Part shown: in pieces, positions 28,241 through 54,049 of the stretch | How the letters are laid out: the number at the start of each line of letters is the position of its first letter | Numbering within the stretch: position 1 is the first letter of the stretch | Source of the DNA: Candidatus Omnitrophota bacterium | GTDB lineage: Bacteria; Omnitrophota; Gorgyraeia; Pluralincolimonadales; CAZUZR01 | DNA length: 64,000 nucleotides | Assembly (NCBI GenBank): GCA_043821025.1 | Contig: JBDRDF010000032.1 | Location: forward strand, 11,261 to 75,260 | Direction of reading: 5' to 3' | Program-made: the position numbers and the translations under genes | Notes under the pieces: generated by a model | Database searches by the model: none | Seen by the model: only the letters and a program-made list of their open reading frames with translations | Told to the model about the DNA's origin: nothing

Positions 28241-29617
28241 ATGGAAAGGGTTTTAAACCAAGAGCGTTCGTTGAAGATAGGGGTTTCCGGCGTAAGGGGC
28301 ATAGTTGGGGAGACGTTAACTCCTCAGCTTTTGGCTTCCTTTGCGGAGGCGTTTGGTTCGTATGTGGGAAGGGGAAAGGTTTTAGTCGGCTCAGATACAA
28401 GGACGTCAAAGGATATGGTAAAATATGCCGTTTTTTCTGGACTTTTATCCAGCGGATGTGAGCCAGTGGATTTGGGGATATGTCCCATCCCGACATTATT
28501 AATAAGGACAAAATATTCCAAAGCCGCGGGAGGCATAGCGATTACCGCAAGCCATAATCCGGTTCAATGGAATGCCCTGAAATTCATCAACAAAGATGGC
28601 CTATTACTAAACGCTAATCAGGCAGAGGAACTCCTAGATGTTTACCATCAGGGAGAATTTTTTAAATGCAATAATTCGGAAATTAAAAATATCAAAGTTG
28701 ATGATGGAGCTATCCCTTATCATTTAGAGAAGATATTCAATTATATAGATGTGGATGCAATACGTAGAAGGAAGTTTAGGGTGGCAATTGATTGCTGTAA
28801 TGGTGCAGGCTCGCTTATTACGCCGATTTTATTAAAGAAGTTTGGATGTGAGGTAATTTCGATTAACGTTGAACCAAATGGGTTGTTTCCTCATGACCCC
28901 GAGCCAATTTCTAAAAATATAGTTCAGATCTGTTCTTTGGTTAAATCTAAGAAGGCCGATATCGGCTTTGTCCAAGATGCCGATGCCGATCGCTTAGCCA
29001 TAGTGGATGAAAACGGAAACCCCATAGGTGAGGATTATACTTTAGTTTTAGTCGTCGACTATATCTTAAGTAAGAAGCGCGGTTCCGTAGTGACAAATCT
29101 TTCAGCAACAAAAGCTGTCGATGACGTTGCTTCCAAATATGGTTGTAGAGTAATTAGGGCTAAGGTCGGCGAGATAAACGTAGTCGAAAAGGTAGCAAGT
29201 GAAAAAGCGATTGTAGGAGGGGAGGGCAATGGCGGCGTGATAATTCCTGCCATCCATCCGTGTAGAGATAGCCTTGCTGGCATCGGAATAATATTGGAAT
29301 ATTTGGCGAAGTCGAAGCTTAAACTTTCAGAGAACGTCAAAAAGTTGCCGCGTTATTATATGATTAAGGGTAAAGTGTACTGCGAGACCGCAAAGGCACA
29401 TTCGGTTGTAAGAAGGTTGCAAAATATTTACAAGAAGGCAAAACTGACATTGTTGAATGGGATTAAGGTGGAAGCCGAAGACCATTGGATTCATATTCGT
29501 CCTTCAAATACGGAGCCCATAATTCGCGTCATAGTTGAGGCGAGGACTAAAAAGGCCGCCGACCAACTTTATAATCAAAGTATAAAAGACATTGCGGCAT
29601 TATTGAATAAGGCATGA
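28241..29617 (+). CDS. Alpha-D-phosphohexomutase (phosphoglucomutase/phosphomannomutase), tandem paralog
   Basis: It has the canonical TASHNPVQWNALKF, DADADR and GGEGNGG motifs. The start is taken at ATG 28241, 2 nt after the upstream stop. Confidence 0.7.
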   Translation: MERVLNQERSLKIGVSGVRGIVGETLTPQLLASFAEAFGSYVGRGKVLVGSDTRTSKDMVKYAVFSGLLSSGCEPVDLGICPIPTLLIRTKYSKAAGGIAITASHNPVQWNALKFINKDGLLLNANQAEELLDVYHQGEFFKCNNSEIKNIKVDDGAIPYHLEKIFNYIDVDAIRRRKFRVAIDCCNGAGSLITPILLKKFGCEVISINVEPNGLFPHDPEPISKNIVQICSLVKSKKADIGFVQDADADRLAIVDENGNPIGEDYTLVLVVDYILSKKRGSVVTNLSATKAVDDVASKYGCRVIRAKVGEINVVEKVASEKAIVGGEGNGGVIIPAIHPCRDSLAGIGIILEYLAKSKLKLSENVKKLPRYYMIKGKVYCETAKAHSVVRRLQNIYKKAKLTLLNGIKVEAEDHWIHIRPSNTEPIIRVIVEARTKKAADQLYNQSIKDIAALLNKA

Positions 29618-30588
29618 CTTTTTTTGTTATTTTGATAGCGTTATTTTTGGCTATGAATGTCGGCGCCAACAATACAGCCGCTGAGATGGAAGCGGCTTAT
29701 AGGGCTGGCGTTCGCACCAAAAAAGAGGCGCTAGTATTAATCGCTGTATTCGTTATTTTGGGCGCTATAATAGTCGGCTTGCCCGTCGTAAAAACTTTGG
29801 GCGGAGGGCTTGTTCCGCAAAGGACATTCAAAGCGTATTTTTATATCGTCTTTGTGGTAATGGCTGTTGCTGCAGTTTTCGATTTTATATCGAATATATT
29901 TAAGATATCCATTCCTACTTCATACGCGATAGTCTCTTCGATAGCTGCTGTAGGTTTATATTATAAAAGTTTATCCGTTGACAAATCTTTGATGATCTTA
30001 AAGTGGTGGATTGTTTCGCCCATAGTTGTCTTTATTGTTGTTTTTCTTGTTGGAAAATTTTTGAACCTCAAATTTATAAAATCATTAGGCAAGTTGAAAA
30101 CCAGAGGGAAGGTTAAAGCTTTATTGGGCGCTATGCTGTCTTTCTCTGGGTGTTACGTCGCCTTTGCGGGAGGGGCTAACGGTGCTGCTAAAGCAATGGG
30201 CCCGGTAGTTGCCGCAGGCATGATAGACAATCGTTGGGGTGTTTTGCTTGGTGGAGTAGGGATCGCAGCCGGTGCGCTCATCTTCGGTAAAATTGCGTTA
30301 GAGGCCGGCGATAGAGAAATTGCTGAAATCGGTTTCGTAAGAGCAATATTGATTGAGGTAATTTGCGCGACAGTTTTATTGTTGGCTTCTTTAGACGGCA
30401 TTCCTCTCTCTGTCTCTGTGACAGTGAGTTCAAGCCTTATAGGTTTAGGTTGCGCTGACTTAGGATTTCGGCAGAGCCTAAGAAGGCACCACGCCATAAG
30501 GGCAGGCTTTATATGGTTTGTTGTACCGCTAGTTTCCGTTGGGCTTACCTATTTCTTTTTGCATACCCTTGGCCATATATTTAAATAG
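29614..30588 (+). CDS. PiT-family anion permease (short form); by context possibly a CysP-like sulfate permease
   Basis: It has two PiT signature repeats (NVGANNTAAEM and FAGGANGAAKAMGPV) and about 10 TM helices. Confidence 0.55.
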   Translation: MTFFVILIALFLAMNVGANNTAAEMEAAYRAGVRTKKEALVLIAVFVILGAIIVGLPVVKTLGGGLVPQRTFKAYFYIVFVVMAVAAVFDFISNIFKISIPTSYAIVSSIAAVGLYYKSLSVDKSLMILKWWIVSPIVVFIVVFLVGKFLNLKFIKSLGKLKTRGKVKALLGAMLSFSGCYVAFAGGANGAAKAMGPVVAAGMIDNRWGVLLGGVGIAAGALIFGKIALEAGDREIAEIGFVRAILIEVICATVLLLASLDGIPLSVSVTVSSSLIGLGCADLGFRQSLRRHHAIRAGFIWFVVPLVSVGLTYFFLHTLGHIFK

Positions 30589-30600
30589 AAAATTTTTTAC

Positions 30601-30628
30601 TTGACAAAGTTTAATTTTTATGTATACT
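30601..30628 (+). promoter_or_regulatory. Sigma70-like promoter TTGACA-16-TATACT upstream of the Rrf2 gene, with an overlapping imperfect palindrome
   Basis: TTGACA is at 30601-30606 and TATACT at 30623-30628. ACTCTA-N11-TAGAGT lies at 30626-30648. Confidence 0.4.
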
Positions 30629-30657
30629 CTACTATGTTGATAGAGTTAATATAGAAA

Positions 30658-31098
30658 ATGCGAATAACTTATAAGGGAGATTACGCTTTAAAGACAATAT
30701 TGGATTTAGCACTACATTATGACGCTGGGTTGGTAACTATCCATGATTTGGCTAAACGTGCTGACATCCCTGTCAAATTCCTAGAACAGGTGCTCTTAGA
30801 TTTGAAAAGCGGGGGATTTGTAGAAAGCAGACGTGGAAAGATAGGGGGATATTATTTAGCCAAGTCCCCTTCGCAGATAAAATTGGGCGATGTTATTAGA
30901 TTTATTGATGGACCAACTGAACCTATAGCCTGCGTTAAAAGTCGATATAAGGGTTGCGAGGACATCTATAAATGCGTCTTTAGAAATATATGGCAGGAAG
31001 TAGCCCAAGCAATTTCTAATATAATTGATAATATAACTTTTGAGGACCTGGCTAATAAGGTAAAGGTTGCGCAAAAAGAGAGTATCTATTCTATTTAG
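30658..31098 (+). CDS. Rrf2-family transcriptional regulator (IscR/CymR-like) with three Cys for a possible Fe-S cluster
   Basis: It has an N-terminal wHTH (YALKTILDLALHYDAGLVTIHDLAKRADIPVKFLEQVL). Cys residues lie in IACVKSRYKGCEDIYKC. Confidence 0.7.
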   Translation: MRITYKGDYALKTILDLALHYDAGLVTIHDLAKRADIPVKFLEQVLLDLKSGGFVESRRGKIGGYYLAKSPSQIKLGDVIRFIDGPTEPIACVKSRYKGCEDIYKCVFRNIWQEVAQAISNIIDNITFEDLANKVKVAQKESIYSI

Positions 31099-31114
31099 AA
31101 AGGAGAGATAAGCA

Positions 31115-31840
31115 GTGGGTTTATTAGAGAAAAAAGAGGACATAAGAGAACTGGTAGATACTCTAAATTTTAAACAGAAAGTGGACAGGTCCTTAGCCCT
31201 GATAAAAGAGGCTTATGAGAAATACGGCGAAGGCCTGGTGGTAGCCAATAGTTTGGGCAAGGATTCGATGGCGGTTTGGGATTTAGCCAAAAAGGTTAGC
31301 CCTAATATACGGGGATTTATTGTTACGACGCGTTTTAAGCCTAAAGAGACTATTCAGTTTATGTATGAGACTGTCGCGCGTTACCCCGAGCTTAAAATTT
31401 ATAAAAGTGATGTAGAAATACCAGATAAACTTTATGAAACCGACCCAGATAGATGCTGCGATTTATTAAAAGTAGAGCCGACGCGTCGGGCGATTGAAGA
31501 AATGAAGGTAAAATGCTGGGTTACGGGCTTACGTTGCACTGAAGGAAGAACACGCACAGATTTTAAGGAAGTTGAGGAGCGCGACAAGGGCCTGATTAAA
31601 CTAAATCCTATTCTTATTTGGAAAGAAAGAGAGGTCTGGCAATATCTGGCTCTCAACGGTGTGAAAGTAAACCCCCTATATGCCCAAGGTTACAGGTCTT
31701 TGGGCTGTGCGCCCTGCACAAATATTACGAGTGAAGAAGATGAGCGTGCTGGGCGTTGGATTGGCACCAGCAAATGTGGCGGAGAATGCGGGATTCATAC
31801 CAGGCCTTTAAAAATAAATGTAGAAGGAGACGGGATTTGA
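31115..31840 (+). CDS. cysH: Assimilatory adenylyl-sulfate/phosphoadenylyl-sulfate reductase (CysH family; the Fe-S Cys pairs suggest the APS-reductase type)
   Basis: A GTG start is preceded by AAAGGAGAG. It has the PAPS-reductase fold, a CC...CxxC signature (DRCCDLLK, LGCAPC) and a C-terminal KCGGECGIH motif. Confidence 0.7.
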   Translation: MGLLEKKEDIRELVDTLNFKQKVDRSLALIKEAYEKYGEGLVVANSLGKDSMAVWDLAKKVSPNIRGFIVTTRFKPKETIQFMYETVARYPELKIYKSDVEIPDKLYETDPDRCCDLLKVEPTRRAIEEMKVKCWVTGLRCTEGRTRTDFKEVEERDKGLIKLNPILIWKEREVWQYLALNGVKVNPLYAQGYRSLGCAPCTNITSEEDERAGRWIGTSKCGGECGIHTRPLKINVEGDGI

Positions 31841-32808
31841 TTAAAAACATCTTCTTAATAATATTGGTGATCTTCTTTGCTTTTAATATGGGCGCAAGCG
31901 GCATTGCTCCTTCTTTTGCTTCCACTTACGGCGGAAAGTTAATAAAGAAGAAGAATGCCTTAATCCTGTTCGGGCTTTTTGTAATCTTAGGTGCTGTGTT
32001 TTTAGGAAGGAATGTAACTCTGACTCTGGGTAAAAATTTACTTGCCCAAGAATTAATAAGTTTTAATGTTGCTTTAATAATCTTAGGCTCAGCAGCCTTA
32101 GGTTTGTTTGTAGCTAATATTTTAAAGATTCCCCAGTCTACAAGCCAGGTTACTGTAGGCGCAATTGTGGGTGCAGGATTATATTTTCAGCATTTAAATC
32201 TTAAGACCTTATTTTTTAAGATACTTCCTATGTGGGTTATTTTGCCTTTATTATCTTATATTTTAACCCTATTGATTTATAAGACGATATATCCGCCGCA
32301 TCATAATAACCTGCATATTTACCAAAAAATATTTACCAATGAAAAGAAATTAAAGCTGTCAGCTTTAATAGTAAGTTGCTAGGTTGCTTTTGCTATCGGC
32401 ACAAACAATGTAGCAAATGCAGTGGGGCCTCTATCCGCAGCAGGGATTTTAGGGATAGGCTCAGGGCTCTTTTTAATTGCTCCTCTCTTTGGAGTAGGGG
32501 CTTGGGTTATGGGCAAAGGGCCCCTTGAGACCGCGGGAAAAGAAATAGTCCCCCTGGGATTGGTTTCCAGCGCTCTGGTTTCTTTTGTAACCGCGAGCTT
32601 ATTAATCTTTGCCTCAACTTTAGGTATCCCCCAATCATTGGTGCAGCTTAACCTCGCTTCCATATTTGCCATAAGTTCGGTAAAAAATGGCCATAAGTAT
32701 ACCTTAAACCAGCATATCACCAGAAAGACATTTTTTGTCTGGATAATTACGCCTTTGATTTCATTGGGTATATCGTATTTATTATTGTCTTTATTTTTAA
32801 GAATATAA
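31837..32808 (+). pseudogene. Second PiT-family (CysP-like) permease interrupted by an in-frame TAG (32380-32382); a pseudogene, split gene or sequencing error
   Basis: A TTG start overlaps the cysH stop (TTGA) and is preceded by GAAGGAGA. The first half ends ...LIVSC*. The same frame continues VAFAIGTNNVANAVGPLSAAG, which is the second PiT signature. No frameshift is involved. Confidence 0.45.
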
Positions 32809-32809
32809 T

Positions 32810-33208
32810 ATGCTTATCTTAGAAAAAGATTTATTAGAAAAGATGTTGCAGCAAATTAAAGAAGAATTTCCTAATGAGGCATGCGGAATTCTGGCAGGCC
32901 GAGAGGGAAGGGTCGAAAAGGTTTACAAAATGAGCAATACAGATAAAAGCCCTTCTACGTATTTTATGGATGCAAAAGAGCAACTTTTGGTAATGAAACA
33001 GATACGTAATTTAGGACTGGATATGGTCGGCATATATCATTCGCACGTCGCCAGTACTGCATACCCCTCTCTACATGATGTGGAATTGGCTTTTTATCCT
33101 GAGGTTTCGTATGTTATTGTGTCGTATAAAGACAAAGATAATTCCACTGTTAAATCATTTAAAATAAAAGAAGGAAAGATAATGGAAGAAGAGATAAAAA
33201 TAGAATGA
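32810..33208 (+). CDS. JAMM/MPN+ metalloprotease (Mec+/CysO-cleaving type deubiquitinase-like)
   Basis: It has the JAMM motif E(ACGILAG)...HSHVASTAYPSLHD. It is 132 aa. Confidence 0.7.
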   Translation: MLILEKDLLEKMLQQIKEEFPNEACGILAGREGRVEKVYKMSNTDKSPSTYFMDAKEQLLVMKQIRNLGLDMVGIYHSHVASTAYPSLHDVELAFYPEVSYVIVSYKDKDNSTVKSFKIKEGKIMEEEIKIE

Positions 33209-34236
33209 GCCTTATACTAGTTGGCACAAATCACAAATTTAGTCCGATTGAAATGAGGGAGAAAATCGCCTTTTCTAAAAAGATGCTTAATAATGCCTTG
33301 GCTGAATTGACGAGCTTTAAGTGGATTAAAGCAGCGGTTATACTTTCTACCTGTAATAGAGTAGAGTTGTACGCAGATACGTCGGACATTTATATGGGAG
33401 TTAGAGCATTGAAAGATTTTCTGTCAAGTTATCATCGCTTGGAATTGAATAAGATAGAGCCATATCTTTATACATATATAGATAAAGAAGCAATCCTACA
33501 TTTATTTAGTGTATCTAGTGGGATCGATTCTCAAATTATAGGCGAACACCAAATTCTAGAGCAAGTAAGAGTTGCCTATAAACAAGCAAGGGCAGCTAAC
33601 CTTACAAATCCATTTTTAGATACGATATTTAAAGAAGCGGAAAGGATTTCCTTAAAAATAAGACAAGAGACCGAAATCTCAAAAGATAAGACCTCCATAG
33701 CGAGAATAGTAATGGAACTTATAAGAACAAAAAGTGATTTTATCAAGGTTAAAAAGATATTGATTATCGGTGTAGGTAAGATATCCGAGTTAGTAGTTAG
33801 GCATTTAAAAAAAGAAGAGATAGATGTAGTCTTTATCGCCAACAGAACTTATGAAAGAGCGTGCCAATTGGCGAGATGCATTAATGCGAAAGCGATAGGT
33901 TTTGATAGGCTTAAAGAGAAATTAAAGGAGGTTGATATAGTCATCAGCGCAACCTCCAGTCCGCATTTGATATTAAAAAAGGAAGATCTGGTGGACGTTA
34001 AAAAGCCATTGCTGATTATCGATTTGGCTGTGCCACGGGATGTGGAGTCGGAAGCAAGATATATGGAGGGTATCGACCTTTTTTGTTTAGATGACTTGAA
34101 TTTTATAATAGAAAAAAATTTAAATGGAAGAAGACAACAGATTCCCAATGCTTTAAGGATTATAGAAAAAGAGGTAGAAAATCTGTGCTTAACAGAATAT
34201 TTAGAGTTGGAACTCGAACCAGTCCGCTTGCCCTAA
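33205..34236 (+). CDS. hemA: Glutamyl-tRNA reductase (HemA), short form
   Basis: It has the LSTCNRVELY catalytic-Cys motif and an NADPH-binding segment (LIIGVGKISELVVRHL). It overlaps the JAMM gene by 4 nt. Confidence 0.7.
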   Translation: MSLILVGTNHKFSPIEMREKIAFSKKMLNNALAELTSFKWIKAAVILSTCNRVELYADTSDIYMGVRALKDFLSSYHRLELNKIEPYLYTYIDKEAILHLFSVSSGIDSQIIGEHQILEQVRVAYKQARAANLTNPFLDTIFKEAERISLKIRQETEISKDKTSIARIVMELIRTKSDFIKVKKILIIGVGKISELVVRHLKKEEIDVVFIANRTYERACQLARCINAKAIGFDRLKEKLKEVDIVISATSSPHLILKKEDLVDVKKPLLIIDLAVPRDVESEARYMEGIDLFCLDDLNFIIEKNLNGRRQQIPNALRIIEKEVENLCLTEYLELELEPVRLP

Positions 34237-35243
34237 AGCAAGTCAATGAGGTCGTAACTTCTTTAAAGAGATTCTATCCAGAGTTCCAATTTGAGATAGT
34301 AGGCATAGATACATATGGCGATAAGGATAAGATTACTCCTATATCAGAAGTAGAAGGCAGCGATTTCTTTACCAAAGAGATAGATGAAGCCCTTTTAAAA
34401 GGGGAGATCGATTTCGCTATCCACAGCGCTAAGGATTTGCCTGATAATTTAGCGCCCGGCTCTTTTATCGCCGCTATTACTAAGTCCGTTGACCCATCTG
34501 ATGTGTTGATAGCAAGGGATAATTTGAAAATTGACGAACTCAAAACTGGGGCCAAGATAGGGACAAGTAGCCTAAGGCGCAAGGCCCAACTTAAAAACTA
34601 TCGTAAGGACCTTCAGATTATAGATATTCGGGGAAATGTTGAAGAAAGGTTGAAGTTACTAGATGAGACCGACTTAGATGGTATCGTCGTTGCTGCTGCG
34701 GGGCTTATTCGGTTGGGCTTAGAAGACCGTATAACCCAAAGGATTCCTTTTGATATTTTAAGACCTCACCCATTACAGGGCTCTTTGGCAATAGCAGTTC
34801 GTCAGGCTGACGAGGAAATAATATCTTTAATGGAGAAGATCGATTCCCGAAGGAAGATAATATTTATCTGTGTAGAAAACGCCTCTCGCAGCCAGATAGC
34901 CGAAGGATTCCTAAGACATTTTGGTTGGCAAAGATTCGTAGCCAGAAGCGGCGGAATTAAACCAGCGGATAAAATCGACCCATTAGCTATCGAAGTAATG
35001 AAGGAAGTGGAAATAGATATTTCCAAACAGAAGCCAAAACTAATTTCTAAAGATTTATTATCCGAGCAGTTGGTCACAGTTATTAGTATGGGTTGTTTAG
35101 AAAGCTGTCCTGCAATTAAGATCGATCAAAATTGGCAGATTGAAGACCCTAAAGGTAAGTCCATAGAAAGATTTCGCCGGGTTAGAGATATGATAAAAGA
35201 AAAAATAAAGAAGCTTACAGAAAAAGGATGCCATGGTTCATAA
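34185..35243 (+). CDS. Porphobilinogen-deaminase-like (HemC domains 1-2) fused to a LMW-PTP/ArsC-like domain; the HemC cofactor domain 3 appears absent
   Basis: The N-terminal 215 aa align to HemC (RVGTRTSPLALKQ...GTSSLRRKAQL...GNVEERLKLLD...AAAGLIRLGL). The C-terminus has a CX5R P-loop (IIFICVENASRSQIAEGF) and an MGCLESCP motif, in place of the dipyrromethane-binding domain. Confidence 0.5.
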   Translation: MLNRIFRVGTRTSPLALKQVNEVVTSLKRFYPEFQFEIVGIDTYGDKDKITPISEVEGSDFFTKEIDEALLKGEIDFAIHSAKDLPDNLAPGSFIAAITKSVDPSDVLIARDNLKIDELKTGAKIGTSSLRRKAQLKNYRKDLQIIDIRGNVEERLKLLDETDLDGIVVAAAGLIRLGLEDRITQRIPFDILRPHPLQGSLAIAVRQADEEIISLMEKIDSRRKIIFICVENASRSQIAEGFLRHFGWQRFVARSGGIKPADKIDPLAIEVMKEVEIDISKQKPKLISKDLLSEQLVTVISMGCLESCPAIKIDQNWQIEDPKGKSIERFRRVRDMIKEKIKKLTEKGCHGS

Positions 35244-35493
35244 ATTTCGTTGCCCAGGAAATATCTCTTTGAACTTAAAGGCAGAAATTCTTAGATGTCC
35301 AAAATGTGGCTACGAAGTAGAGATATTTTCTGATGAGCTTAGAAGAGTATGCCCCAAATGTACTACTGAAGTATATCGCAAGAGACTACCTTCCTGTATT
35401 GACTGGTGTCCTGCAGCAAGAGAATGTATTGGTGATAAAAAATGGAAGGAGTTAAAGATAGGGGGTAGAAATGAAAAAGAGAAAAATTATTAA
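35233..35493 (+). CDS. Small Cys-rich zinc-ribbon protein (hypothetical)
   Basis: It has CPKCGYEV...CPKCTTEV plus CIDWCPAAREC. It overlaps its neighbours. Confidence 0.3.
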   Translation: MVHKFRCPGNISLNLKAEILRCPKCGYEVEIFSDELRRVCPKCTTEVYRKRLPSCIDWCPAARECIGDKKWKELKIGGRNEKEKNY

Positions 35494-36265
35494 AATCGAT
35501 GAAGAAAAATGTAATGGTTGCGGAAATTGTATACCTGCTTGCCCAGAACAGGCCATACAGATCGTAGAGACTCCAAAAGGCAAAAAGGCAAGGCTGGTGA
35601 AAGAGTTTTACTGTGATGGGTTAGGCGCCTGCCTTGGAAGCTGTCCAGTAGGGGCGTTGACCATCAAAGAAAGAGAGGTTTTGCCCTACGATGAGGAGGC
35701 AACGATTGCCCATATAAAAGAAGTTGCTCCTGAGATGCTGAAAACACATTTAGAACACCTTAGAGACCATGCTCAAGAACTTCCCAGACATCATTCACAT
35801 AAGATGCCCAAGGGAATGACTGCTTGTCCTTCGGCTCAAATAATACACTGGGGAAGGGAAGAAGAAAAACCCATCACCCAGAAGGAAGTTAGCACTTCCT
35901 CCGAGCTTCGTCAATGGCCAATACAATTGCATCTTGTGAACCCAGATGCCCCTTATTTTAAAAATGCAGATTTAATCATTGTAGCTGACTGCGTTCCATT
36001 TGCCTATGCCGATTTTCATCAACATTTTTTAAGGAATAAAGCTGTAGCTATCGGTTGTCCAAAGTTAGATGACGTTGATGCCTATATTGAAAAATTGACC
36101 CAGATATTTAAGACCGCTAATCCCAGAAGCATAAAAGTTATTCATATGGAGGTACCTTGTTGCTTTGGTTTGCGCCATATAGTTGAGGAAGCGATAAAAT
36201 TGTCAGGCAAGAAGATACCACTGGAAAATGTTATTGTGGGGATAAAAGGCGAAATTAAAATATGA
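35471..36265 (+). CDS. 4Fe-4S dicluster ferredoxin-domain protein with a C-terminal domain of unknown function
   Basis: It has CNGCGNCIPACP and CDGLGACLGSCP, with additional Cys residues at the C-terminus (VPCCFGL). Confidence 0.45.
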   Translation: MKKRKIIKIDEEKCNGCGNCIPACPEQAIQIVETPKGKKARLVKEFYCDGLGACLGSCPVGALTIKEREVLPYDEEATIAHIKEVAPEMLKTHLEHLRDHAQELPRHHSHKMPKGMTACPSAQIIHWGREEEKPITQKEVSTSSELRQWPIQLHLVNPDAPYFKNADLIIVADCVPFAYADFHQHFLRNKAVAIGCPKLDDVDAYIEKLTQIFKTANPRSIKVIHMEVPCCFGLRHIVEEAIKLSGKKIPLENVIVGIKGEIKI

Positions 36266-37665
36266 ATAAAGTTAAGGTTTATTTAGTTGGAGCAGGCCCG
36301 GGAGGAAATGATCTAATAACTGTAAGGGGATTAAATACCTTAAGAGAGGCGGATGTGGTTATTTATGATTATCTTGTAGATAGAAAACTCTTACAGGAAG
36401 CAAAGGAAGGCGCAGAGTTAATCTGTTGCGATAAATTGAGAAAAAATAGATATTCAGACGGTTTTCTGATTCATCAAGAAAAGATAAATAAGCTTTTGGT
36501 TAAGAAGGCAAGGGAAGGCAAAAAGGTAGTCCGACTTAAAAATGGGGATCCTGTAATTTTTGGCAGGTTATCACAAGAGTTGGAAGCGCTCCTTAAAAAC
36601 AGAATAGAATTTGAGGTTATCCCAGGGGTGACAGCGGCAAGCGTTGCCGCTGGCTTAAGCGGCATTCCCTTGACTGACCGAAGATTCGCTTCTAGTTGTG
36701 TTTTTGTTACAGGGCACGAAGATCCAAGTAAAAGAACCAGTCTTTTAGATTGGAATAGCATAAGCAAGGTCGGCACAATAGTTTTGTATATGGCGGTTGA
36801 GAATGTTAACAAGATAGTTAAAAAGCTCATTAATGCTGGCAAGAACGAAGACGCCCCTGTAGCTATAGTTAAAGATGCCGGGCTACTTACCCAGAAGGTT
36901 TTGACAGGCACCTTAGGAAATATCGTTACAAGGGCTAAGGAACAAAATATAAAACCTCCAGCAATTATTATTATTGGCGAAGTGGTAAAATTAGAAAAAG
37001 AGTTTAACTGGCTTAAGAAGAATAAAAGGATACTTTTTACAGGGATATCGCCACAGAGATTTTTTGAGAAAGGAACTATTTTTCATCAACCACTTATTAA
37101 AATGGAGCCGCTCAATGATTACAAAGAATTTGATAAGGAGATTAGAAGCATCGATGGTTACGACTGGATAATCTTTTCAAGTCGATATGGCGTCCAATAT
37201 TTCTTTCAAAGGTTATATAAGATAGGTTATGACACAAGACGACTGAGTGAAGTGAAAATTGCAGCCATCGGTAATTCCACTCGAAACTGGCTTTTGGATT
37301 TCGGTGTTATTGCAGACGTCGTTCCGAAAGAGGAGTCTTCAAAAGGGCTGATAAATGAATTCAAGAAGATAGACATTAGAAATAGAAGGATATTTTTACC
37401 ACGCTCAGATATTTCTGATAAAGGACTTGCACAAGGGCTTTCATCATTAGGGGCCAAGGTTACTTCTTGTGTGGCTTATAAGAACGTAATGCCTGATAAC
37501 CTACCGGACTTAGACTTAAGATTTTTTGATGAGGTTATGTTTACCAGTCCCTCAGGTGTACGCAACTTTGTAAAAAGATATGGAACTCTGCCTAAAAGCG
37601 TTAAAGTAAGATGTATTGGAGACGTTACTTTTAAGGAAGCAAGAAGATGGCATTTATTAGGTTAA
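36262..37665 (+). CDS. cobA-hemD: Uroporphyrinogen-III C-methyltransferase (CobA/SUMT) fused to uroporphyrinogen-III synthase (HemD)
   Basis: The SUMT N-terminus reads VYLVGAGPGGNDLITVRGLNTLREADVVIYD. The C-terminal roughly 220 aa are HemD-like. Confidence 0.7.
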   Translation: MNKVKVYLVGAGPGGNDLITVRGLNTLREADVVIYDYLVDRKLLQEAKEGAELICCDKLRKNRYSDGFLIHQEKINKLLVKKAREGKKVVRLKNGDPVIFGRLSQELEALLKNRIEFEVIPGVTAASVAAGLSGIPLTDRRFASSCVFVTGHEDPSKRTSLLDWNSISKVGTIVLYMAVENVNKIVKKLINAGKNEDAPVAIVKDAGLLTQKVLTGTLGNIVTRAKEQNIKPPAIIIIGEVVKLEKEFNWLKKNKRILFTGISPQRFFEKGTIFHQPLIKMEPLNDYKEFDKEIRSIDGYDWIIFSSRYGVQYFFQRLYKIGYDTRRLSEVKIAAIGNSTRNWLLDFGVIADVVPKEESSKGLINEFKKIDIRNRRIFLPRSDISDKGLAQGLSSLGAKVTSCVAYKNVMPDNLPDLDLRFFDEVMFTSPSGVRNFVKRYGTLPKSVKVRCIGDVTFKEARRWHLLG

Positions 37666-38618
37666 AACGTTTAAGGAGGAATAACCAGATAAGGGAATTG
37701 TTCAGCCAAACTCAACTTCTGGCGAAAGATTTGATTATGCCTTATTTTGTAATGGAGGGTAGTAAAAAGAAAGTGCCCATTAAATCTATGCCTGGAATTT
37801 ACCGCTTATCCGTTGATAATTTAATTAAGGATATAAAGGAGGCCAAAAGTTTAGGTATAAAGGCAATCCTTCTTTTTGGGATATGTCGCAAGAAGGATGA
37901 AATTGGTTCAGAAGCTTATTCTTCAGATAGTATCGTTCAAAGAGCGATAAAAGCGGTAAAGAAAAATATAGAGGATATGGTTATCGTTACGGACGTTTGT
38001 TTATGTGGGTATACTTCCCACGGCCATTGCGGGGTTGTAAAGAACTCTTGTATAGATAATGATGAGACGTTGAAAGTTTTGTCTAAGATCGCTTTGTCTC
38101 ATGCTGAAGCTGGAGCGGATTTCGTGGCTCCATCTGCGATGATGGATGGACAGGTAAGAACCATAAGAGAAACTTTAGATAGAAACGGCTTTTCCGATAC
38201 AGGGATATTGGCTTATTCAGCTAAATATGCCTCAAGCTTCTATGTGCCCTTTAGAGAAGCCTTGGGCTCCGCTCCACAATTTGGAGATAGAAAGACATAC
38301 CAGATGGACTATAGAAATTCTGATGAGGCATTGAGAGAGATAGAACAGGATATCGAAGAGGGTGCGGATATAATTATGGCTAAACCAGCATTAGCATATT
38401 TAGATATTATCTCCAAAGCAAAACAAAATTTCAACATACCCATCGCTGCTTATAATGTCAGCGGAGAATATTCTTTAGTTAAGTTAGGAGCCAAAGCAGG
38501 CATAATAAATGAGCAAGAAATAACCTTAGAAATTTTAACTGCCATAAAAAGGGCAGGGGCAGATTTGATTATAACCTATCATGCAAAGGAAGTGGCTGGA
38601 TGGTTGAGGAATAAATAA
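37647..38618 (+). CDS. hemB: Porphobilinogen synthase (delta-aminolevulinate dehydratase, HemB)
   Basis: It has the zinc-site VTDVCLCGYTSHGHCG and an active-site Lys region. Confidence 0.8.
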   Translation: MAFIRLKRLRRNNQIRELFSQTQLLAKDLIMPYFVMEGSKKKVPIKSMPGIYRLSVDNLIKDIKEAKSLGIKAILLFGICRKKDEIGSEAYSSDSIVQRAIKAVKKNIEDMVIVTDVCLCGYTSHGHCGVVKNSCIDNDETLKVLSKIALSHAEAGADFVAPSAMMDGQVRTIRETLDRNGFSDTGILAYSAKYASSFYVPFREALGSAPQFGDRKTYQMDYRNSDEALREIEQDIEEGADIIMAKPALAYLDIISKAKQNFNIPIAAYNVSGEYSLVKLGAKAGIINEQEITLEILTAIKRAGADLIITYHAKEVAGWLRNK

Positions 38619-39544: not shown

Positions 39545-40798
39545 ATGAAAGTAATCTATTCTGGTAATCTTTTCCATGAAGCACAGAAGTATATCCCGGG
39601 TGGAGTAAATAGTCCTGTCCGGTCTTTCAGGGCTGTAGGTGGGTATCCAATATTTGTAAATCATGGGAAGGGTTCAAAGGTTTATAATGAATGTGGCAGG
39701 GAATTTATTGATTATTGCCAAAGTTTCGGTGCATTAATTTTAGGCCACGCTCACCCAAAAGTTGTACGAGAGTTAAGAAAGGTAGTTAACAAAGGTACCA
39801 CTTTTGGAACTCCAACAAAATTAGAGACAGAGTTAGCTAAAATTATCATCGAAGACGTTCCTTCGATACAAAAGATTAGGTTTACTAACTCAGGCACAGA
39901 GGCGGTAATGGGCGCGATCAGACTTGCCAGGGCTTATACAAAAAGAGATAAGATTATAAAATTCGAGGGCTCGTACCATGGTCATGCGGATTATTTATTG
40001 GATTGCGAAGGGGTTCCGAGGGATTTTACAAGGCACACATTAATTACCCCTTATAATAATATAAAGGTAGTTAAAGATTTAATAGAGAAGCATGAAGAGG
40101 ATGTAGCCGCAATAATCGTTGAGCCGATAGCAGCAAATATGGGGGTAGTTTTACCAAAAGATGATTTTCTAAGCGAGTTAAGAAAAATTGCTAGTAAATA
40201 TAATATAATTTTAATTTTCGATGAAGTTATTACTGGTTTTAGACTGATTTTTGGAGGCGCTCAGAAAATATTTGATATTAAACCGGATTTGACGTGTCTA
40301 GGAAAAATAATCGGCGGGGGATTACCGATAGGCGCTTTTGGAGGCAGAAGAGAAATTATGCAACTTTTGGCACCTGAAGGACCTGTCTATCAAGCAGGGA
40401 CTTTCTCAGGCAACCCTGTTTCTATGAGCGCAGGCATAAGTACGTTGAGGATTTTGCACGAATGTAATCCATATAGGAAGGTGGAAGGAATGACTAAATA
40501 TCTTTGTGGGAAAATTAAAGAGTACGCGAATAAACATAAGATCGGGATAGGAATAAATTCTTTTGGTTCCATGTTTAGTATTTTCTTTACAAATAAACAG
40601 ATAACGGATTATAGTATAGCTAAAGCCCAAGATACATCTTTGTTTAAAAAATTCTATCACGGTTTATTAAAAAACGGTGTTTATTTTTCGCCCTCAGGTC
40701 TTGAAGCAGATTTTATTTCGTTAGCACACACGCAAGAAGATATGCAGAAGACCTTACGGGCAGTTGATAAAACATTTAGAAATTTGAGGAGGAGTTAA
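39545..40798 (+). CDS. hemL: Glutamate-1-semialdehyde 2,1-aminomutase (HemL)
   Basis: It has the [18 protein letters not shown] signature. It is a class III aminotransferase. Confidence 0.8.
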
Positions 40799-40799
40799 A

Positions 40800-41939
40800 A
40801 TGGGCATAACCATTTATTTAAACGGCAAAAAAGAAACGGTCGAAGAAAATTTAAACATTTCGAAGCTCCTTGAGGTCAAGAAGATTAGGCCGGAAGTTGT
40901 AACGGTGGAATTAAATGGGCAGATTATCGAAAAGCCAAAATACGCAGATGCGTTTATAAAAGATAAAGATAAAGTCGAAGTCGTATATTACATGGGAGGC
41001 GGTATGCCTTTTAGCGACAGAATTGCAGAAAACGTTTTGGAACTAATCGGTCGAACGCCGATCGTTAGGCTAAATAAAATCATAGAATCAGATATGGCGG
41101 AGATATTAGCCAAACTAGAGCAATTTAACCCAGGAGGAAGCGTAAAGGATAGGATTTGTATCTCCATGTTCGAAGACGCAGAAAAGAAAGGCTTACTTAA
41201 AAAGGGCTCGACCATTATTGAGCCGACAAGCGGGAATACGGGAATTGGTTTAGCTATGGTTGCCGCAGTTAAGGATTATAGATGTATCCTTACTATGCCA
41301 GAAACGATGAGTTTAGAAAGAATATATATCCTTAAATCTTATGGCGCAGAGGTTGTGCTTACCCCAGGTGTCGAAGGCATGCAAGGAGCGATTAAAAAAG
41401 CAGAAGAATTGCTAAAAAAGACACCTAATAGTTTTATGCCCCAGCAGTTTAAAAATCCTGCAAATCCTCAAATTCACCGTTTAACTACTGCTAAAGAGAT
41501 ATTGGAAGCAACCAATGGAAACCTAGATGCCTTTGTTGCTGGTGTAGGAACTGGTGGTACAATTACAGGGGTAGGGGAGGTTTTAAAAAAACATAATGCC
41601 TCGATTAAGGTAATTGCAGTTGAGCCCAAAAAGAGCGCTGTTTTATCTGGAGGACAGGTTGGCCCACATAAAATCCAAGGCATCGGTGCCGGTTTTGTTC
41701 CAGAAGTTTTAAATCGTTCGATCATAGATCAAATAATCCAGGTTGATGACGACGATGCCTTTAGGACTTCAAGGAGGCTTGCAAAAGAGGAGGGTCTGTT
41801 TGTAGGTATTTCAGCAGGGGCTGCAGCTTGGGCAGCATTAAACGTCGCTAAGGATTCAGGCAAGGGCAAGAGGGTAGTCGTAGTTTTGCCAGATACGGGT
41901 GAAAGATATTTTTCTATGCATCAATATTTTGAGGCATAA
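40800..41939 (+). CDS. ThiS/MoaD-like sulfur-carrier domain (ending GGG) fused in-frame to cysteine synthase (CysK/CysM family); an internal SD+ATG at 41004 could also give free CysK
   Basis: The N-terminal 68 aa ([26 protein letters not shown]...[33 protein letters not shown]) fit the ThiS pattern. The cysteine synthase part follows ([24 protein letters not shown]). GGGAGG at 40994-40999 precedes ATG 41004. Confidence 0.65.
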
Positions 41940-41957
41940 CGTAAACGGCGAGATTAA

Positions 41958-42852
41958 GATGAAAACAAAAGATGCAAAAATAACCTTAGATTTGGACGAG
42001 TTTAGGAAGGGCGGAATTTTAAAACAAAGGCAGAAAAACTATTTTATCCTTCGAACTCGCATACCCGGTGGATATCTAAGGGCCGATATGTTGTCAAAAT
42101 TTATTCGAATCGCCAAAAAATATGGCAGAGGATATGTTCATCTCTCAACGAGGCAGGCTATAGAAATCGCCTGGATTAAAATAGAAAAAATAGATAACCT
42201 CATAAAGGACCTTAAAAGAGTGGGTATCTTAAGAGGTGCTTGCGGTCCGCGTTCTCGCAACATAGTGGCGTGTCCTGGCTCAACCGTTTGCAGGTACGGT
42301 TTTGCGGATACAGAAAAATTGGCTGCCAAATTCGATAAGTACTTTTTTGGCAAAGATGTTCCAAAGAAATTTAAGATAGGACTGACGGGTTGTCTTAATT
42401 CTTGTGCTAAACCCCAGGAAAACGATATTGGGTTTTTGGCTGTTGGTGAGCCCGAATGCGATTTAGACAAATGCACTGGTTGTATGCTATGTGCCAAGGT
42501 TTGTGAGAAGGTTTGCGCTCGAGGCAAAAGGGAACCTGCGATCGTCATGGATGAGAATAAGGAACCTGTATATAGAAGGGAGTTTTGCTTCTTTGAGGGT
42601 GATTGTGTAAGGATATGCCCAGTTAATGCCTGGAAAATAAAACGAGTAGGATATACGGTATTTTTAGGAGGGAGGGTCGGCCGTTTCCCTACGTTTGGGT
42701 TTAAAATAAAGGAATTTGCTACCGAACAAGAAATTTTTAAAATAACCAAAAGAGCAATAGCCTGTTATAACAGAATTGCCGAAAAAGGCGAGCGCTTCGG
42801 AGAAACTATAGAAAGGATAGGAATAGAAGGGGTAAAAAAACAGGTGCTATGA
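41958..42852 (+). CDS. Small siroheme-[4Fe-4S] sulfite reductase (AsrC/DsrA-like, with an inserted ferredoxin domain)
   Basis: The siroheme-FeS Cys motif is Cx5C...Cx3C (ACGPRSRNIVACPGSTVC, GCLNSCAKP). The ferredoxin insert reads CTGCMLCAKVCEKVC...CVRICP. Confidence 0.6.
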
Positions 42853-46849: not shown

Positions 46850-48124
46850 ATGCCTTTTAAAACGATGAAGAAATTTTTTATCTTATTTTTGGTTAATGCA
46901 TTTTTATTAAACTATAGTTTGTTGTACTCTTCTGAGGCGCTTCCTTTAGATTCCCTCATTAAAGAGGCAAAGGAAAAGAATCCAGGGATTTTAGCAGCAA
47001 AGAAAAACTGGGAGGCATCTTTAACAAGAGTGCCTCAGGCGAAGTCTCTTGAAAGTCCCACTATAGGTTTTACTTTTATGAAGATACCTAAAGGCACATT
47101 AAAATTAGACAAGACAATATCCGAGGACCGCATGTTATCAATTTCCCAGTTCTTACCTCTATTTGGCAAATTATCTTTAAAAGGCAAAATCGCATTGGTT
47201 GAATCACAGATGTTCGCCGCTGAATATAGAAACAAAGAACTAGAGATTATAAACGAAGTTAAAAACGCCTATTACGATTTATTTATGAATTATAAGGAAA
47301 TAGAATTAAACGAGCAGAGCCTTAAATTTTTAGTGGGCATCGCCAAAATTGCTGAAGCGAAATATATAGTGGGAGAAATTTCGCAGGAAGAGATTTTTAA
47401 AATAAATCTCGAAATAGCCAGTCTAAGCAATAATATTGCTAATCTGAGACAGGAACAGTTGGCGAAGATAACGCGGATAAATGCTTTGCTAAACCGAGAT
47501 CCCGAAAGCCCCTTAGTTATTGCAGAGTTACAAGAAGACGCATCTTTTAATATAGATATAACATATTTATACAAACTTACCTTAGTGAATCAACCAGAAT
47601 TGCTAATCTTTTCTTATGCGATAGAGAGAAATAAATACGCCAAGTCCTTGGCCGAAAGAAATTATTTGCCGGATTTAATGGCACAAATTGCACTTCGCGG
47701 TTTTACCGGAGGCATTGGCCCTTGGGATTTGATGTTAGGTTTTACTTTACCTTTTTGGTTCTGGACAAAACAGCGTTATGAAGTAAAGGAAGCGATTGCT
47801 AATATAGATGAGGCAAATGCAGCTTATCAGGCAATGAAGAATAGGTCATTATCCGAAACCAAGGATTTAGCCACAAAAGTAGAAATTGCCAAGAATAAGA
47901 TTAAACTATATAAAACTAATTTGATACCTATATTAGAAAGTTCTATTGAGTCTTCTTTAGCAGGTTTTCGTTCAGGAAGAGGTGATTTTATGATGATCTT
48001 AGACAACGAAAGGATGCTTATTGAGACGAAAATGGACTATTATAAATCATTGGTTGAATATAATACGAATTTAGCGGATTTAGAAAGGACTGTAGGTATA
48101 GATTTAAAAGGGGTGATAAAATGA
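46850..48124 (+). CDS. TolC-like outer-membrane efflux protein
   Basis: A signal peptide is present. It has two OEP repeats. Confidence 0.6.
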   Translation: MPFKTMKKFFILFLVNAFLLNYSLLYSSEALPLDSLIKEAKEKNPGILAAKKNWEASLTRVPQAKSLESPTIGFTFMKIPKGTLKLDKTISEDRMLSISQFLPLFGKLSLKGKIALVESQMFAAEYRNKELEIINEVKNAYYDLFMNYKEIELNEQSLKFLVGIAKIAEAKYIVGEISQEEIFKINLEIASLSNNIANLRQEQLAKITRINALLNRDPESPLVIAELQEDASFNIDITYLYKLTLVNQPELLIFSYAIERNKYAKSLAERNYLPDLMAQIALRGFTGGIGPWDLMLGFTLPFWFWTKQRYEVKEAIANIDEANAAYQAMKNRSLSETKDLATKVEIAKNKIKLYKTNLIPILESSIESSLAGFRSGRGDFMMILDNERMLIETKMDYYKSLVEYNTNLADLERTVGIDLKGVIK

Positions 48125-49272
48125 AAAAAATATTGTTACTTATAATTACTTTGGTAGTCCTTTTTAGCAACGTTTCATTGTATGCCCAGCATCAACATCA
48201 GGCACCGCCGATTAAAAAAGAAACCACAGTAAGTCAAAAGAAGATAAAATATTGGACTTGTGGTATGCATCCGCAGGTAAAACAGGACAAACCCGGAAAT
48301 TGCCCCATATGCAATATGAAATTAATTCCGATATACGAAGAAGAGACTGTTTCGCAAGCGGCACCTGAAGAAGCAATTATTAAATTAAGCAGCCGAGATA
48401 TCTCCTTGGCAGGAATAAAATCCGAACCGGTTACTCTTAGGCATCTTTTCAAAGAAATTCGCACCGTAGGAAGAATTGCCTATGACCCCGAGTCGTATAA
48501 AGCAGAGGAAGAATACATTCAGGCACTTAAAGCACAAGAGGATTTAAAAGCAAGCGAAATTCCAGAGATAAAAAAGCGTGCATCAAGCCTTGTAGAGGCA
48601 GCTGGCTTGAAATTGCGTCTATTAGGATTGGGAGAAGAACAGATCAAAGAATTAGCTACACAAAACAAGCCTGACAGCAGTCTAATTATATCAAATGAAG
48701 AGAATCCTTTTGTTTGGGTCTATGCGGATATCTATGAATATGAGTTAAGTTGGATTAGGATAGGCCAACCCATGAAGATATATTCTGTAAGTTTCCCGGA
48801 CGAAGAATTTAGGGGTAAGATAGAGGCAGTCGATCCCGTGCTTAACCCTATGACCCGCTCAGTGCGCATAAGGGCAAAGATAGATAACCCCCAGCTTAAG
48901 TTAAAACCACAGATGTATGTGGATATCTTTATCGAATCATATCTTACCGATGAAAATGACCAGCATAAACTTGTTTTAGCGATACCCAAAGATGCCGTAT
49001 TAGATACAGGTCTGCGTAAGATCGTTTATTTAGATTTAGGAGGCGGTTCATATCTCGGCAAAGAGGTAAAAGTTGGGCCAGAGGCAATCTCCTATGTTGA
49101 TGGCGAAAAACAAAAGTTTTACCCTGTAGTTGGCGGCTTAAAAGAAAATGATTTGGTGGTTACCAAAGGTAATTTCTTAATTGATTCTCAAAGCCAGATA
49201 ACGGGGGTAGCTGCTGGTGTATATGGTGGCGCATTAGGCGTTAAAGAAGAAACAAAACCTCATATTCATTAA
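48121..49272 (+). CDS. cusB: CusB-like RND periplasmic adaptor (MFP) with an N-terminal heavy-metal-binding zinc-ribbon motif
   Basis: It has YWTCGMHPQVKQDKPGNCPICNMKL. MFP beta-barrel and lipoyl regions are present. Confidence 0.65.
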   Translation: MKKILLLIITLVVLFSNVSLYAQHQHQAPPIKKETTVSQKKIKYWTCGMHPQVKQDKPGNCPICNMKLIPIYEEETVSQAAPEEAIIKLSSRDISLAGIKSEPVTLRHLFKEIRTVGRIAYDPESYKAEEEYIQALKAQEDLKASEIPEIKKRASSLVEAAGLKLRLLGLGEEQIKELATQNKPDSSLIISNEENPFVWVYADIYEYELSWIRIGQPMKIYSVSFPDEEFRGKIEAVDPVLNPMTRSVRIRAKIDNPQLKLKPQMYVDIFIESYLTDENDQHKLVLAIPKDAVLDTGLRKIVYLDLGGGSYLGKEVKVGPEAISYVDGEKQKFYPVVGGLKENDLVVTKGNFLIDSQSQITGVAAGVYGGALGVKEETKPHIH

Positions 49273-49287
49273 CCTTAAAGAGGTAAT

Positions 49288-52200: not shown

Positions 52201-52551
52201 AATGCGGTTGTGCTTGTATCCTGCTTGGACGATCTATTTAGACAGAAAAAGCCAAGTTCATTAAAAGAGATTAGAGATACAGTAATACAAGGAGGCCTCT
52301 TACGCGTAAGGCCAATAATGATGACTACGACGACCACAATCATTGCTCTTATGCCCCTTATGTTATCAACCGGTACAGGTTCAGAGATAATGAAACCTAT
52401 GGCTTCTCCTACCGTGGGTGGTTTAGTAACCGCAACCTTGTCTAATTTGATCTTAGTGCCTGTCCTCTATTGCTGGCTAAAAGAGAGGCAGTTTAAAAAA
52501 ATCAAAGTTTTAGGAAGTGAGGTGAAAGCAAATGGCAAGAGTAACCATTAA
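49288..52551 (+). CDS. cusA: CusA/CzcA-type heavy-metal efflux RND pump (HME family), with an inserted CxxHP...CP metal-binding-like motif
   Basis: It is 1087 aa with 12 TM helices. The insertion reads YYCLDHPQNSYDKPGKCPIDGKKLV, at about residues 150-175 of the periplasmic domain. Confidence 0.7.
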   Translation: MIDRLIEVCLKNRFLVISAFILIIVWGIFSIKNTAIDAIPDIGELQVIVFADWPGRSPKDVEDQVVYPLTTRLLGTPGVKVIRSASGFGIGMIYLIFKEGVDYYWARTRVLERLNFATAGLPEGTMVSLGPDATALGQIFWYTVENGYYCLDHPQNSYDKPGKCPIDGKKLVASHYDLSQLRSLQDWYVRYQLNSVSGVSEVGSVGGYVKQYQIDVDPNKLLAYDVKLMDVLTAVKRSNIDVGAKVFEEGGVEFIIRGVGFIKTIKDIENIVISSHAGTPVYIKNIGTVTLGPDFRRGTLDKEGKEVTGGVVLMRYGENPLRVIQGIKNKLEELKIGLSPGVRIVPFYDRTGLILRSINTLRDALIQEIIITIFVIVVFLLHFWGSVIISIVLPIGVLISFILMRIRGVDANIMSLGGIAIAIGVMVDSGCVLVENIYRKLAERRAERNLPNLPSEERLQVCIKAAQEVGKPVLFALLTTIIGFIPVFVLTGQAGKLFIPLAFTKTFAMVGAAIIALTLIPTLSYYLLRGRLRLAEDNATSRFLHKIYKPVISWSLNRKKTIILISCVILLLGGISAVLMKQEFMPPLNEGDLLFMPVLLPGASLTQVMDVMKKQDIIIKNDFPNEVEWAVGKLGRAETATDPAPIIMIETIIHLRPQKEWRKGMTREKLVEQIQEKTKIPGVSPIMTQPIRNRIDMLATGIQTPVGIKVFGFDLNKIEEIAIELERIVSQVKGAVSPFAERFGSLPYFEIEIDRNQAARYGLRIDDIQEIIMTAIGGENLTTTVEGRERYPVRVRYMRELRDSPEALNRIFVSSMMGEQIPLSQVARLKRVTGPSMIQSENTLPYARIFINVNQDVIGLVDFVKLAQKTVNEAIKSGKINLPAGYYISWSGQFESEMESRRRLIPSLAICSAIILLLLYMAFKSFSSLAVVSTGLPVSLMGGIILLFILGFKFSTAVWVGFIALFGVATDNAVVLVSCLDDLFRQKKPSSLKEIRDTVIQGGLLRVRPIMMTTTTTIIALMPLMLSTGTGSEIMKPMASPTVGGLVTATLSNLILVPVLYCWLKERQFKKIKVLGSEVKANGKSNH

Positions 52552-52645
52552 GTGGCTTATAAGACCCATTGCCCATTGCAAGGAAGGACATTAGGATAAA
52601 ACCACCGGTGATTATATTTGCTTGTAGGAGAAAAAATGGTATAAA

Positions 52646-53002: not shown

Positions 53003-53022
53003 GTTAAAAAGGAGTTACTTAA

Positions 53023-54045: not shown

Positions 54046-54049
54046 TAGC

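Follow-up and report, generated by a model that had tools for sequence, protein, structure and literature searches.

A 64,000-nt stretch of the Candidatus Omnitrophota bacterium genome assembly GCA_043821025.1 (contig JBDRDF010000032.1), hereafter the window, carries on its forward strand an open reading frame (ORF; 34185..35243, 352 aa, GTG start) in which domains 1 and 2 of hydroxymethylbilane synthase (HMBS, HemC) are fused to an ArsC-like domain with the low-molecular-weight (LMW) phosphatase fold. The canonical HMBS carries a covalent dipyrromethane primer that the enzyme itself builds on a cysteine of domain 3 (Cys242 in E. coli). To our knowledge, the HMBS step is regarded as universal in tetrapyrrole biosynthesis. 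The noteworthy feature of the window protein is that it represents a widespread HMBS form without the cofactor-bearing domain and its cysteine, whereby the fusion to the ArsC-like domain is of lesser interest. The reading which we favor, with a probability of roughly 0.7, is that the N-terminal module would be a functional domain-3-less HMBS serving siroheme synthesis in a sulfate-assimilation operon, and the C-terminal domain an independently acting thiol-dependent ArsC-type reductase, i.e. a fused neighbor.

Both parts were recognized by domain profiles, alignment to known structures and structure prediction. The HMBS module (residues 1–221; 34185..34847, + strand) matched PF01379 (Porphobil_deam) over residues 6–213 with an E-value of 2.4e-70, and covered positions 2–229 of the 293-position TIGR00212 hemC profile with 256.5 bits, passing the cut-off of 164. 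It also covered positions 19–234 of the 241-position model NF002202, with a score of 219, below the cut-off of 251. The ArsC-like domain (residues 223–346; 34851..35222, + strand) matched PF01451 (LMWPc) over residues 225–344 with an E-value of 3.5e-18. In a sequence search of the PDB, residues 1–221 aligned with HMBS structures and residues 222–346 with ArsC structures. The AlphaFold2 model of the whole fusion had a mean pLDDT of 91.7 and a pTM of 0.86; in Foldseek, its N-terminal part was placed on domains 1–2 of HMBS (4mlq, 1pda, 7ccy) with a root-mean-square deviation (rmsd) of 1.2–1.6 Å over 216–222 columns, and its C-terminal part on the pI258 ArsC with a TM-score of 0.82–0.84. A previous inspection of the letters and translated ORFs alone (the sequence-only reading) had put HemC domains 1 and 2 at residues 1–215, followed by a CX5R P-loop (C229-X5-R235) phosphatase/arsenate-reductase fold, and had proposed either a non-canonical HMBS or a new fusion protein. 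The domain positions and the fold were borne out by these results, and both of the proposed alternatives turned out to be true.

The same reading had noted that domain 3 and the dipyrromethane-binding cysteine were missing, and this was upheld. In the Pfam scan of the 352-aa product, PF01379 and PF01451 were matched and PF03900 (HemC domain 3) was not, i.e. an intact domain 3 is absent. The protein contains only four cysteines (C229, C304, C308 and C349), with none in residues 1–228, so that the HemC module is Cys-free and has no equivalent of Cys242. A domain-3 hidden Markov model (HMM) built from 45 canonical HemCs, which recovered 48 of 48 domain-3-bearing control loci at E ≤ 2e-13, had no match in the six-frame ORFs of the window, nor in any of the domain-3-less loci with their 6–10 kb flanks, including the sampled Omnitrophota, Chlamydiota and triple-fusion loci. 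Neither a hidden nor a separately encoded domain 3 was thus found in the window and the domain-3-less loci. The HemC N-terminal HMM found this ORF alone in the 64 kb, in line with the earlier statement that the window has no other hemC. There was also no conserved alternative cysteine in the two-domain clade described below: no Cys column exceeded 39% occupancy, and 19 of 102 short relatives were entirely Cys-free.

The lack of domain 3 is not peculiar to the window protein. Among its 120 best homologues, the majority were HemCs of 221–230 aa with PF01379 alone; the named short homologues were hydroxymethylbilane synthases of Candidatus Omnitrophica/Omnitrophota. In a neighbor-joining (NJ) tree built on the HemC module, one clade took in the 84 sampled domain-3-less sequences without exception and none of the 48 domain-3 sequences. 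This clade has its own signature, with PLQG in place of GQGA, DFF in place of GKGLF (the GKG lid motif), and replacement of the canonical R101, R105 and T154, all of which are near-invariant in canonical HemCs. The replacements at positions 101 and 105 are, in our interpretation, what might be expected if a partner domain had been lost. The window protein shares these signature motifs, as well as the operon type, with the short two-domain HemCs of Omnitrophota, Chlamydiota and relatives, annotated as hydroxymethylbilane synthase (e.g., P0008; NF002202), to which its module is up to 73–75% identical, whereas it differs from them in the additional C-terminal ArsC-like domain and the sub-threshold NF002202 score. 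One further short protein, a 223-aa HemC of the candidate division WS1 (L045, 74–712), also ends before domain 3; it possesses the canonical GQGAL motif, falls outside the domain-3-less clade and may be an independent truncation or frameshift.

In comparison with canonical HemCs (E. coli 1PDA, B. megaterium 4MLQ, human 3ECR), domains 1–2 of the window protein are 37–40% identical and superpose at the above-mentioned 1.2–1.6 Å. It shares with them the catalytic Asp84 (nt 34434–34436), the pyrrole-carboxylate-binding Arg/Ser/Lys set and the position in a hem operon, and differs in the missing domain 3 and cofactor cysteine and in the replaced R101, R105, T154 and GKG lid motif. The residues kept are R11, S13, Q19, F62, S81, K83, D84, S129, R131/R132, R149, R155, R176 and Q198, and the same positions, with R132, are kept across the domain-3-less clade. 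Of these, Asp84, Arg11/131/132/149/155, Ser81/Lys83 and Gln19 are at least 85% conserved in the domain-3-less and canonical sets alike; their roles in the window protein are presumably those of the E. coli enzyme. Judging from this conservation, the HemC module is probably catalytically active. If so, its pyrrole primer would have to be bound either without a covalent link or by a residue that is not cysteine.

An exhaustive search with the short form P0008 against 1.84 billion representatives gave 16,015 matches. Among the best 150 of these (50%-identity representatives), 69 lacked domain 3, in the architectures HemC alone (28), HemA::HemC (22), HemC::CobA::HemD (6), HemC::HemD (3), HemC::CobA (2) and HemC::LMWPc (1). 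The HemA::HemC fusions (within P0242–P0389) terminate with the HemC module, and domain 3 is missing. A scan of GTDB species-representative genomes, with 600 stretches among the matches listed and the taxonomic spread therefore to be taken as a sample, placed domain-3-less HemCs in Omnitrophota, metagenome-assembled genomes of Chlamydiota (one labelled C. trachomatis), Planctomycetes, Bacteroidota (Prevotella, Paludibacter) and one spirochaete. Many of the listed domain-3-less HemCs were fused to CobA-HemD (650–710 aa), HemD or CobA, and none of the listed matches had the HemC::LMWPc form. The triple HemC::CobA::HemD proteins came from Prevotella, Paludibacter, a spirochaete, Planctomycetes and Omnitrophota (L024, L026, L031, L041, L043, L044, L051, L067). 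Such a variety of partners indicates that the C-terminus of the domain-3-less HemC joins whatever gene adjoins it. Taken together, the homologue lengths, tree, residue conservation and architectures make the two-domain HemC a large, old and conserved form whose ends are readily fused to neighbors. As in the other tetrapyrrole fusions (HemC-HemD, CobA-HemD, HemC::CobA::HemD, HemA::HemC), the HemC module of the window protein continues directly into the product of a neighboring operon gene, which here, however, is not a tetrapyrrole enzyme; the ArsC-like fusion is thus a variant of ordinary operon-fusion behavior. The original proposal that domain 3 had been "replaced" by an LMW-PTP/ArsC domain is misleading in view of the comparison, since domain 3 is missing clade-wide, the majority of members carry nothing in its place, and the ArsC-like unit is optional.

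The C-terminal domain has the fold of the LMW-phosphatase-family arsenate reductases (S. aureus pI258, B. subtilis and the Grx-coupled enzyme of Synechocystis; TM-score 0.8–0.87), and shares with them the CX5R-S P-loop (C229-V-E-N-A-S-R235-S236; 34869..34892), the Asp of the DP motif (D321 of "EDP"; nt 35145–35147) and three cysteines. In the sequence search, the E-values were 3e-20 to the Synechocystis Grx-ArsC (2l17) and about 1e-19 to the pI258 ArsC. C229 aligns with the nucleophilic cysteine of ArsC (Cys8/Cys10), as does the P-loop Arg with its counterpart. The putative second and third redox cysteines (C304-L-E-S-C308; 35094..35108) show a hybrid spacing, with C304 aligning with Cys82 of Synechocystis, not with Cys82 of pI258, and C308 with Cys89 of pI258. 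The window domain differs further from the known enzymes in being fused to a biosynthetic enzyme inside a sulfate-assimilation operon. Its nearest stand-alone relatives are proteins of about 130 aa with 50–58% identity, several of them named ArsC, including Nitrososphaerota proteins with the name arsenate reductase ArsC, and the gene of one 55%-identical relative is flanked by those of a divergent ArsR-type regulator and an aquaporin (MIP), a neighborhood classical for ars genes. From these alignments and neighborhoods, the substrate of the domain would be arsenate, and we prefer to see in it a putative thiol-coupled arsenate/oxyanion reductase co-expressed with the PiT/PHO4-type permeases of the operon.

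The operon around the fusion ORF, all on the + strand, is an assimilatory sulfate reduction operon with a CysO-type cysteine pathway. It begins with genes for a PHO4/PiT permease, an Rrf2 regulator, a PAPS/APS reductase, a second PHO4 (two ORFs) and a JAB (Mec+-like) protease (29614..33208), followed by hemA for a glutamyl-tRNA reductase (33205..34236, 343 aa, domain hits GlutR_N and Shikimate_DH), the 3′ end of which has 52 nt in common with the GTG start of the fusion ORF. Downstream of the fusion are genes for an 86-aa Cys-rich Zn-ribbon protein and a 264-aa 4Fe-4S protein (35233..36265), the cobA/hemD fusion (SUMT plus uroporphyrinogen-III synthase; 36262..37665), hemB (ALAD; 37647..38618), an ArsP_1-family permease (PF03773; 38620..39519), 3.4 kb from the ORF and between hemB and hemL, hemL (class-III aminotransferase; 39545..40798), and ThiS-PALP (CysO-CysM-like) together with the NIR_SIR sulfite reductase (40800..42852). 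The operon further holds two ThiF proteins (270 and 251 aa) and another PALP enzyme; the ThiF proteins matched ThiF only and therefore lack a rhodanese domain. All members of the hemA-hemB-hemL-cobA/hemD set reported previously were identified around the ORF, and no second LMWPc gene was found in the 64-kb window. Sulfate assimilation and siroheme genes flank hemC likewise in the related loci L001–L012, L089 and L093. Judging from gene content, the most plausible role of the early tetrapyrrole genes is to provide siroheme for the sulfite reductase, with the NIR_SIR enzyme as its likely consumer.

Several peculiarities of this operon accompany the fusion. No dimerization domain was matched in the 343-aa HemA, and hemA products of all the related operons are 334–348 aa long; together with the HemC without domain 3, this makes two consecutive pathway enzymes without their usual C-terminal domain. 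The Zn-ribbon and 4Fe-4S pair is an insertion between hemC::LMWPc and cobA/hemD, since the 92%-identical relative L089 lacks both genes; the pair recurs elsewhere in related operons (L001, L008), and a similar Fer4/AF_0155 gene is present in L095. The second PHO4/PiT permease is split into ORFs at 31756–32382 (208 aa) and 32422–32808 (128 aa), covering profile positions 1–142 and 248–350, and is either a pseudogene or the result of a sequencing error; in L089, it is a single intact gene of 322 aa. The ArsP_1 permease is present, at different positions, in three operons with the ArsC-like unit (the window, L006 and L008) and absent from the sampled operons without the unit, albeit with small numbers. 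Farther downstream (46850–56254), the window encodes a CopA-type P-type ATPase and a CusCBA-like RND efflux system consisting of OEP, ACR_tran and an HlyD protein that includes a heavy-metal-binding domain, and a similar RND system lies directly upstream of hemA in L094.

The ArsC-like unit behaves as an optional neighbor within operons of this type. In L090 and L092, an unfused LMWPc gene (127 aa) is placed between hemC (224 aa), which follows hemA, and cobA/hemD; it has its own AGGAGG-N5-ATG start and shares 53 nt with the end of hemC in a different frame. Fourteen short HemCs end in the out-of-frame CxxC tail typical of this arrangement; the tail, LCRECLSQS (P0014-type; L090, 500–620), fits the situation in L090 and L092, in which the hemC reading frame continues into the beginning of the overlapping LMWPc gene. 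What separates the fused from the unfused state is a short deletion together with a frame change at the hemC/LMWPc junction. The intact ArsC-like domain is also fused to a Prok-JAB protease in the same operon type (L008, 2684–3544; L015, 2–721), whereby L015 has a short HemC beside the JAB::LMWPc protein. Of the two copies in L008, the one fused to JAB is intact, and the one fused to HemC carries Ser at the position of the P-loop Cys. Otherwise identical operons (L001–L003, L009–L012, L093) lack the unit altogether. This occurrence as a separate, JAB-fused or missing unit argues that HemC function is independent of the ArsC-like domain. The operon position of the ArsC-like unit can also be taken by a second optional module, which resembles HD-domain phosphohydrolases: in P0116 (L093, 6001–7176, 391 aa), it forms one protein with the two-domain HemC, and in L004 (9061–9588), a separate gene right after hemC::LMWPc encodes it.

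Based on these comparisons, residues 1–221 would act, with the two substrate- and cofactor-binding lobes, as the hydroxymethylbilane synthase of the operon, in a pathway leading through hemA, hemL, hemB and hemC to cobA/hemD and delivering siroheme to the adjacent assimilatory sulfite reductase. Residues 223–346 may function as a thiol-dependent ArsC-type reductase with Cys229 of the CX5R loop as the nucleophile, Cys304/Cys308 as the resolving pair and Asp321, most likely reducing arsenate or a similar oxyanion which would enter through the PiT-type permeases of the operon. The fusion could have originated from an ArsC-like gene directly 3′ of hemC with overlapping ends, the two being joined by a frame change at the junction, and the ArsC-like domain would then be a passenger and not a substitute for domain 3. 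Several observations weigh against this reading. The linker is near-absent, the junction is one and the same in all 16 fusions and the pTM is 0.86, so that the two parts may pack in a fixed way, a hint of a non-catalytic role of the ArsC-like domain. The same hint comes from three fusion lineages retaining this domain minus catalytic residues (P-loop Cys to Ser in P0027, Arg to Ile in P0022 and P0024); no second intact copy was seen on the short contigs around P0022 and P0024. The domain scored below both curated ArsC equivalog cut-offs (95.1 vs. 157.6 for TIGR02689 and 84.1 vs. 174.3 for TIGR02691), which places it in a separate subfamily. Compared with the 92%-identical L089, its dN/dS was 0.41 against 0.16 for the HemC module, based on 19 and 44 substitutions only. 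Finally, the search for a second hemC or a free-standing domain 3 covered the 64-kb window and the 6–10 kb flanks of the other loci.

The authenticity of the junction bears on all readings. An assembly chimera or a sequencing frameshift came into question because, in related genomes, the LMWPc gene overlaps hemC in a different reading frame, so that one indel could fake a fusion. The PF01379+PF01451 architecture was found in 16 protein clusters with 47–93% identity from various samples and assemblers, a count to be read as a lower bound, because the search with the isolated ArsC-like domain listed no fused proteins, even though P0001 and others are 90% identical there, presumably an effect of its word-index candidate step. 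All 16 share the junction pattern (I/L)D-x-R-x-K-(I/V)(I/L)F-x-C-x-E-N, and the in-frame junction of the window, IDSRRK-IIFICVEN, is present in P0001 and P0002 (other samples, 92–93% identity), as well as in 14 clusters down to 47%; L089 has the same fused gene in the same operon. The GC content runs from 0.44 to 0.36 across the junction without a break. Moreover, the window junction retains the full last HemC helix, unlike the unfused form, and is therefore no one-base slip of the unfused arrangement. The continuity of the assembly near position 34830, about which the sequence-only reading had been cautious, was confirmed in this way, and an artifact was ruled out by the recurrence in independent assemblies and the continuous GC, leaving it hardly any probability. 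A stand-in role of the ArsC-like domain for domain 3, structural or chemical, would have it pack over the cleft, with the P-loop or another Cys anchoring the primer or the domain stabilizing or capping the module. Indeed, the HemC module has no Cys, and the first one, C229, is located 10 residues past the last HemC helix; only about three residues join this helix (H210–219 in the model) to the ArsC-like domain (E223–231), the junction is invariable as aforementioned, degenerate ArsC-like domains are kept at full length in P0022 and P0027, and some Foldseek alignments to human HMBS extend about 30 columns beyond domain 2. These longer alignments, however, have an rmsd of 4–5 Å and do not improve the TM-score. 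Moreover, the majority of the clade has no such domain, with many members entirely without Cys, and the unit is elsewhere encoded independently, under its own ribosome-binding site, or fused to JAB. None of the cysteines in the ArsC-like domain is shared by all fusions, not even that of the P-loop (Ser in P0027), and the domain is 50–58% identical to stand-alone proteins. A stand-in function thus appears unlikely. As for a single origin of the fusion, a crude NJ tree did not bring the fusion domains together against the stand-alone proteins; the latter had been picked by similarity to the window, and a single junction is common to all fusions.

In view of the missing domain 3 and cofactor Cys, the HemC module could also be a non-functional or differently functioning paralogue, with a canonical three-domain HemC elsewhere in the genome. 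The catalytic and carboxylate-binding residues are, however, all conserved across the clade, the dN/dS of 0.16 is that given above for HemC, and the gene is invariably found in the position of hemC, between hemA and cobA/hemD, often being fused to HemA, CobA or HemD; neither was there any domain-3 match near the sampled Omnitrophota, Chlamydiota or triple-fusion loci, which makes a paralogue quite improbable. As for the ArsC-like domain, a role in sulfur trafficking is conceivable, either as a rhodanese-like carrier of persulfide or S-sulfonate or as a reductase for the CysO/ThiS-JAB cysteine pathway or for APS reduction, whereby the HemC and JAB fusions would mark membership in the sulfate-to-cysteine pathway. 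Such a role is consistent with the presence of the unit here only inside sulfate-assimilation/siroheme operons, near genes for PAPS reductase, ThiS-PALP, TusA and DsrE, with its fusion to a JAB protein of the CysO-hydrolase type in L008 and L015, with both ThiF proteins of the window lacking rhodanese, and with a weak Rhodanese match at the junction region (E 0.22). On the opposite side, the closest stand-alone relatives are named ArsC, and one of them belongs to an ArsR-ArsC-aquaporin operon; three cysteines plus Asp are the pattern of ArsC; three operons combine the domain with an ArsP_1-family permease; and the domain is missing from many otherwise identical operons and therefore is not a core pathway step. 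We consider both the trafficking role and the meaning it would give to the fusions rather unlikely, yet still a serious alternative.

Returning to the two-domain HMBS, this form has long been annotated in databases. No literature on domain-3-less or Cys-less HMBS or on HemC-ArsC fusions was found in a search that covered papers outside subscription-only sources. That the clade as a whole represents an HMBS working without the cysteine-linked dipyrromethane cofactor, with two domains and often without any Cys, is a possibility to which we would give slightly less than even odds. In such an enzyme, the primer might be held non-covalently or via another residue, or a different bilane might be released directly to the often-fused HemD; the ArsC-like domain of the fusions might, in addition, act as a lid over the open cleft.

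In the manner of a Rosetta stone, the HemC::ArsC-like fusion links an arsenate-reductase-like module to sulfate assimilation, with protection against oxyanions co-imported by the PiT-type permeases as a possible rationale, and it shows overlapping operon genes flipping between separate and fused states. If the proposed function of the two-domain clade is true, it would be a second catalytic solution for the HMBS step: with an active clade, the covalent cofactor would be dispensable or attached in an unrecognized way. This would bear on the synthesis of heme, siroheme and B12 in Chlamydia, gut Bacteroidota and many uncultured lineages.

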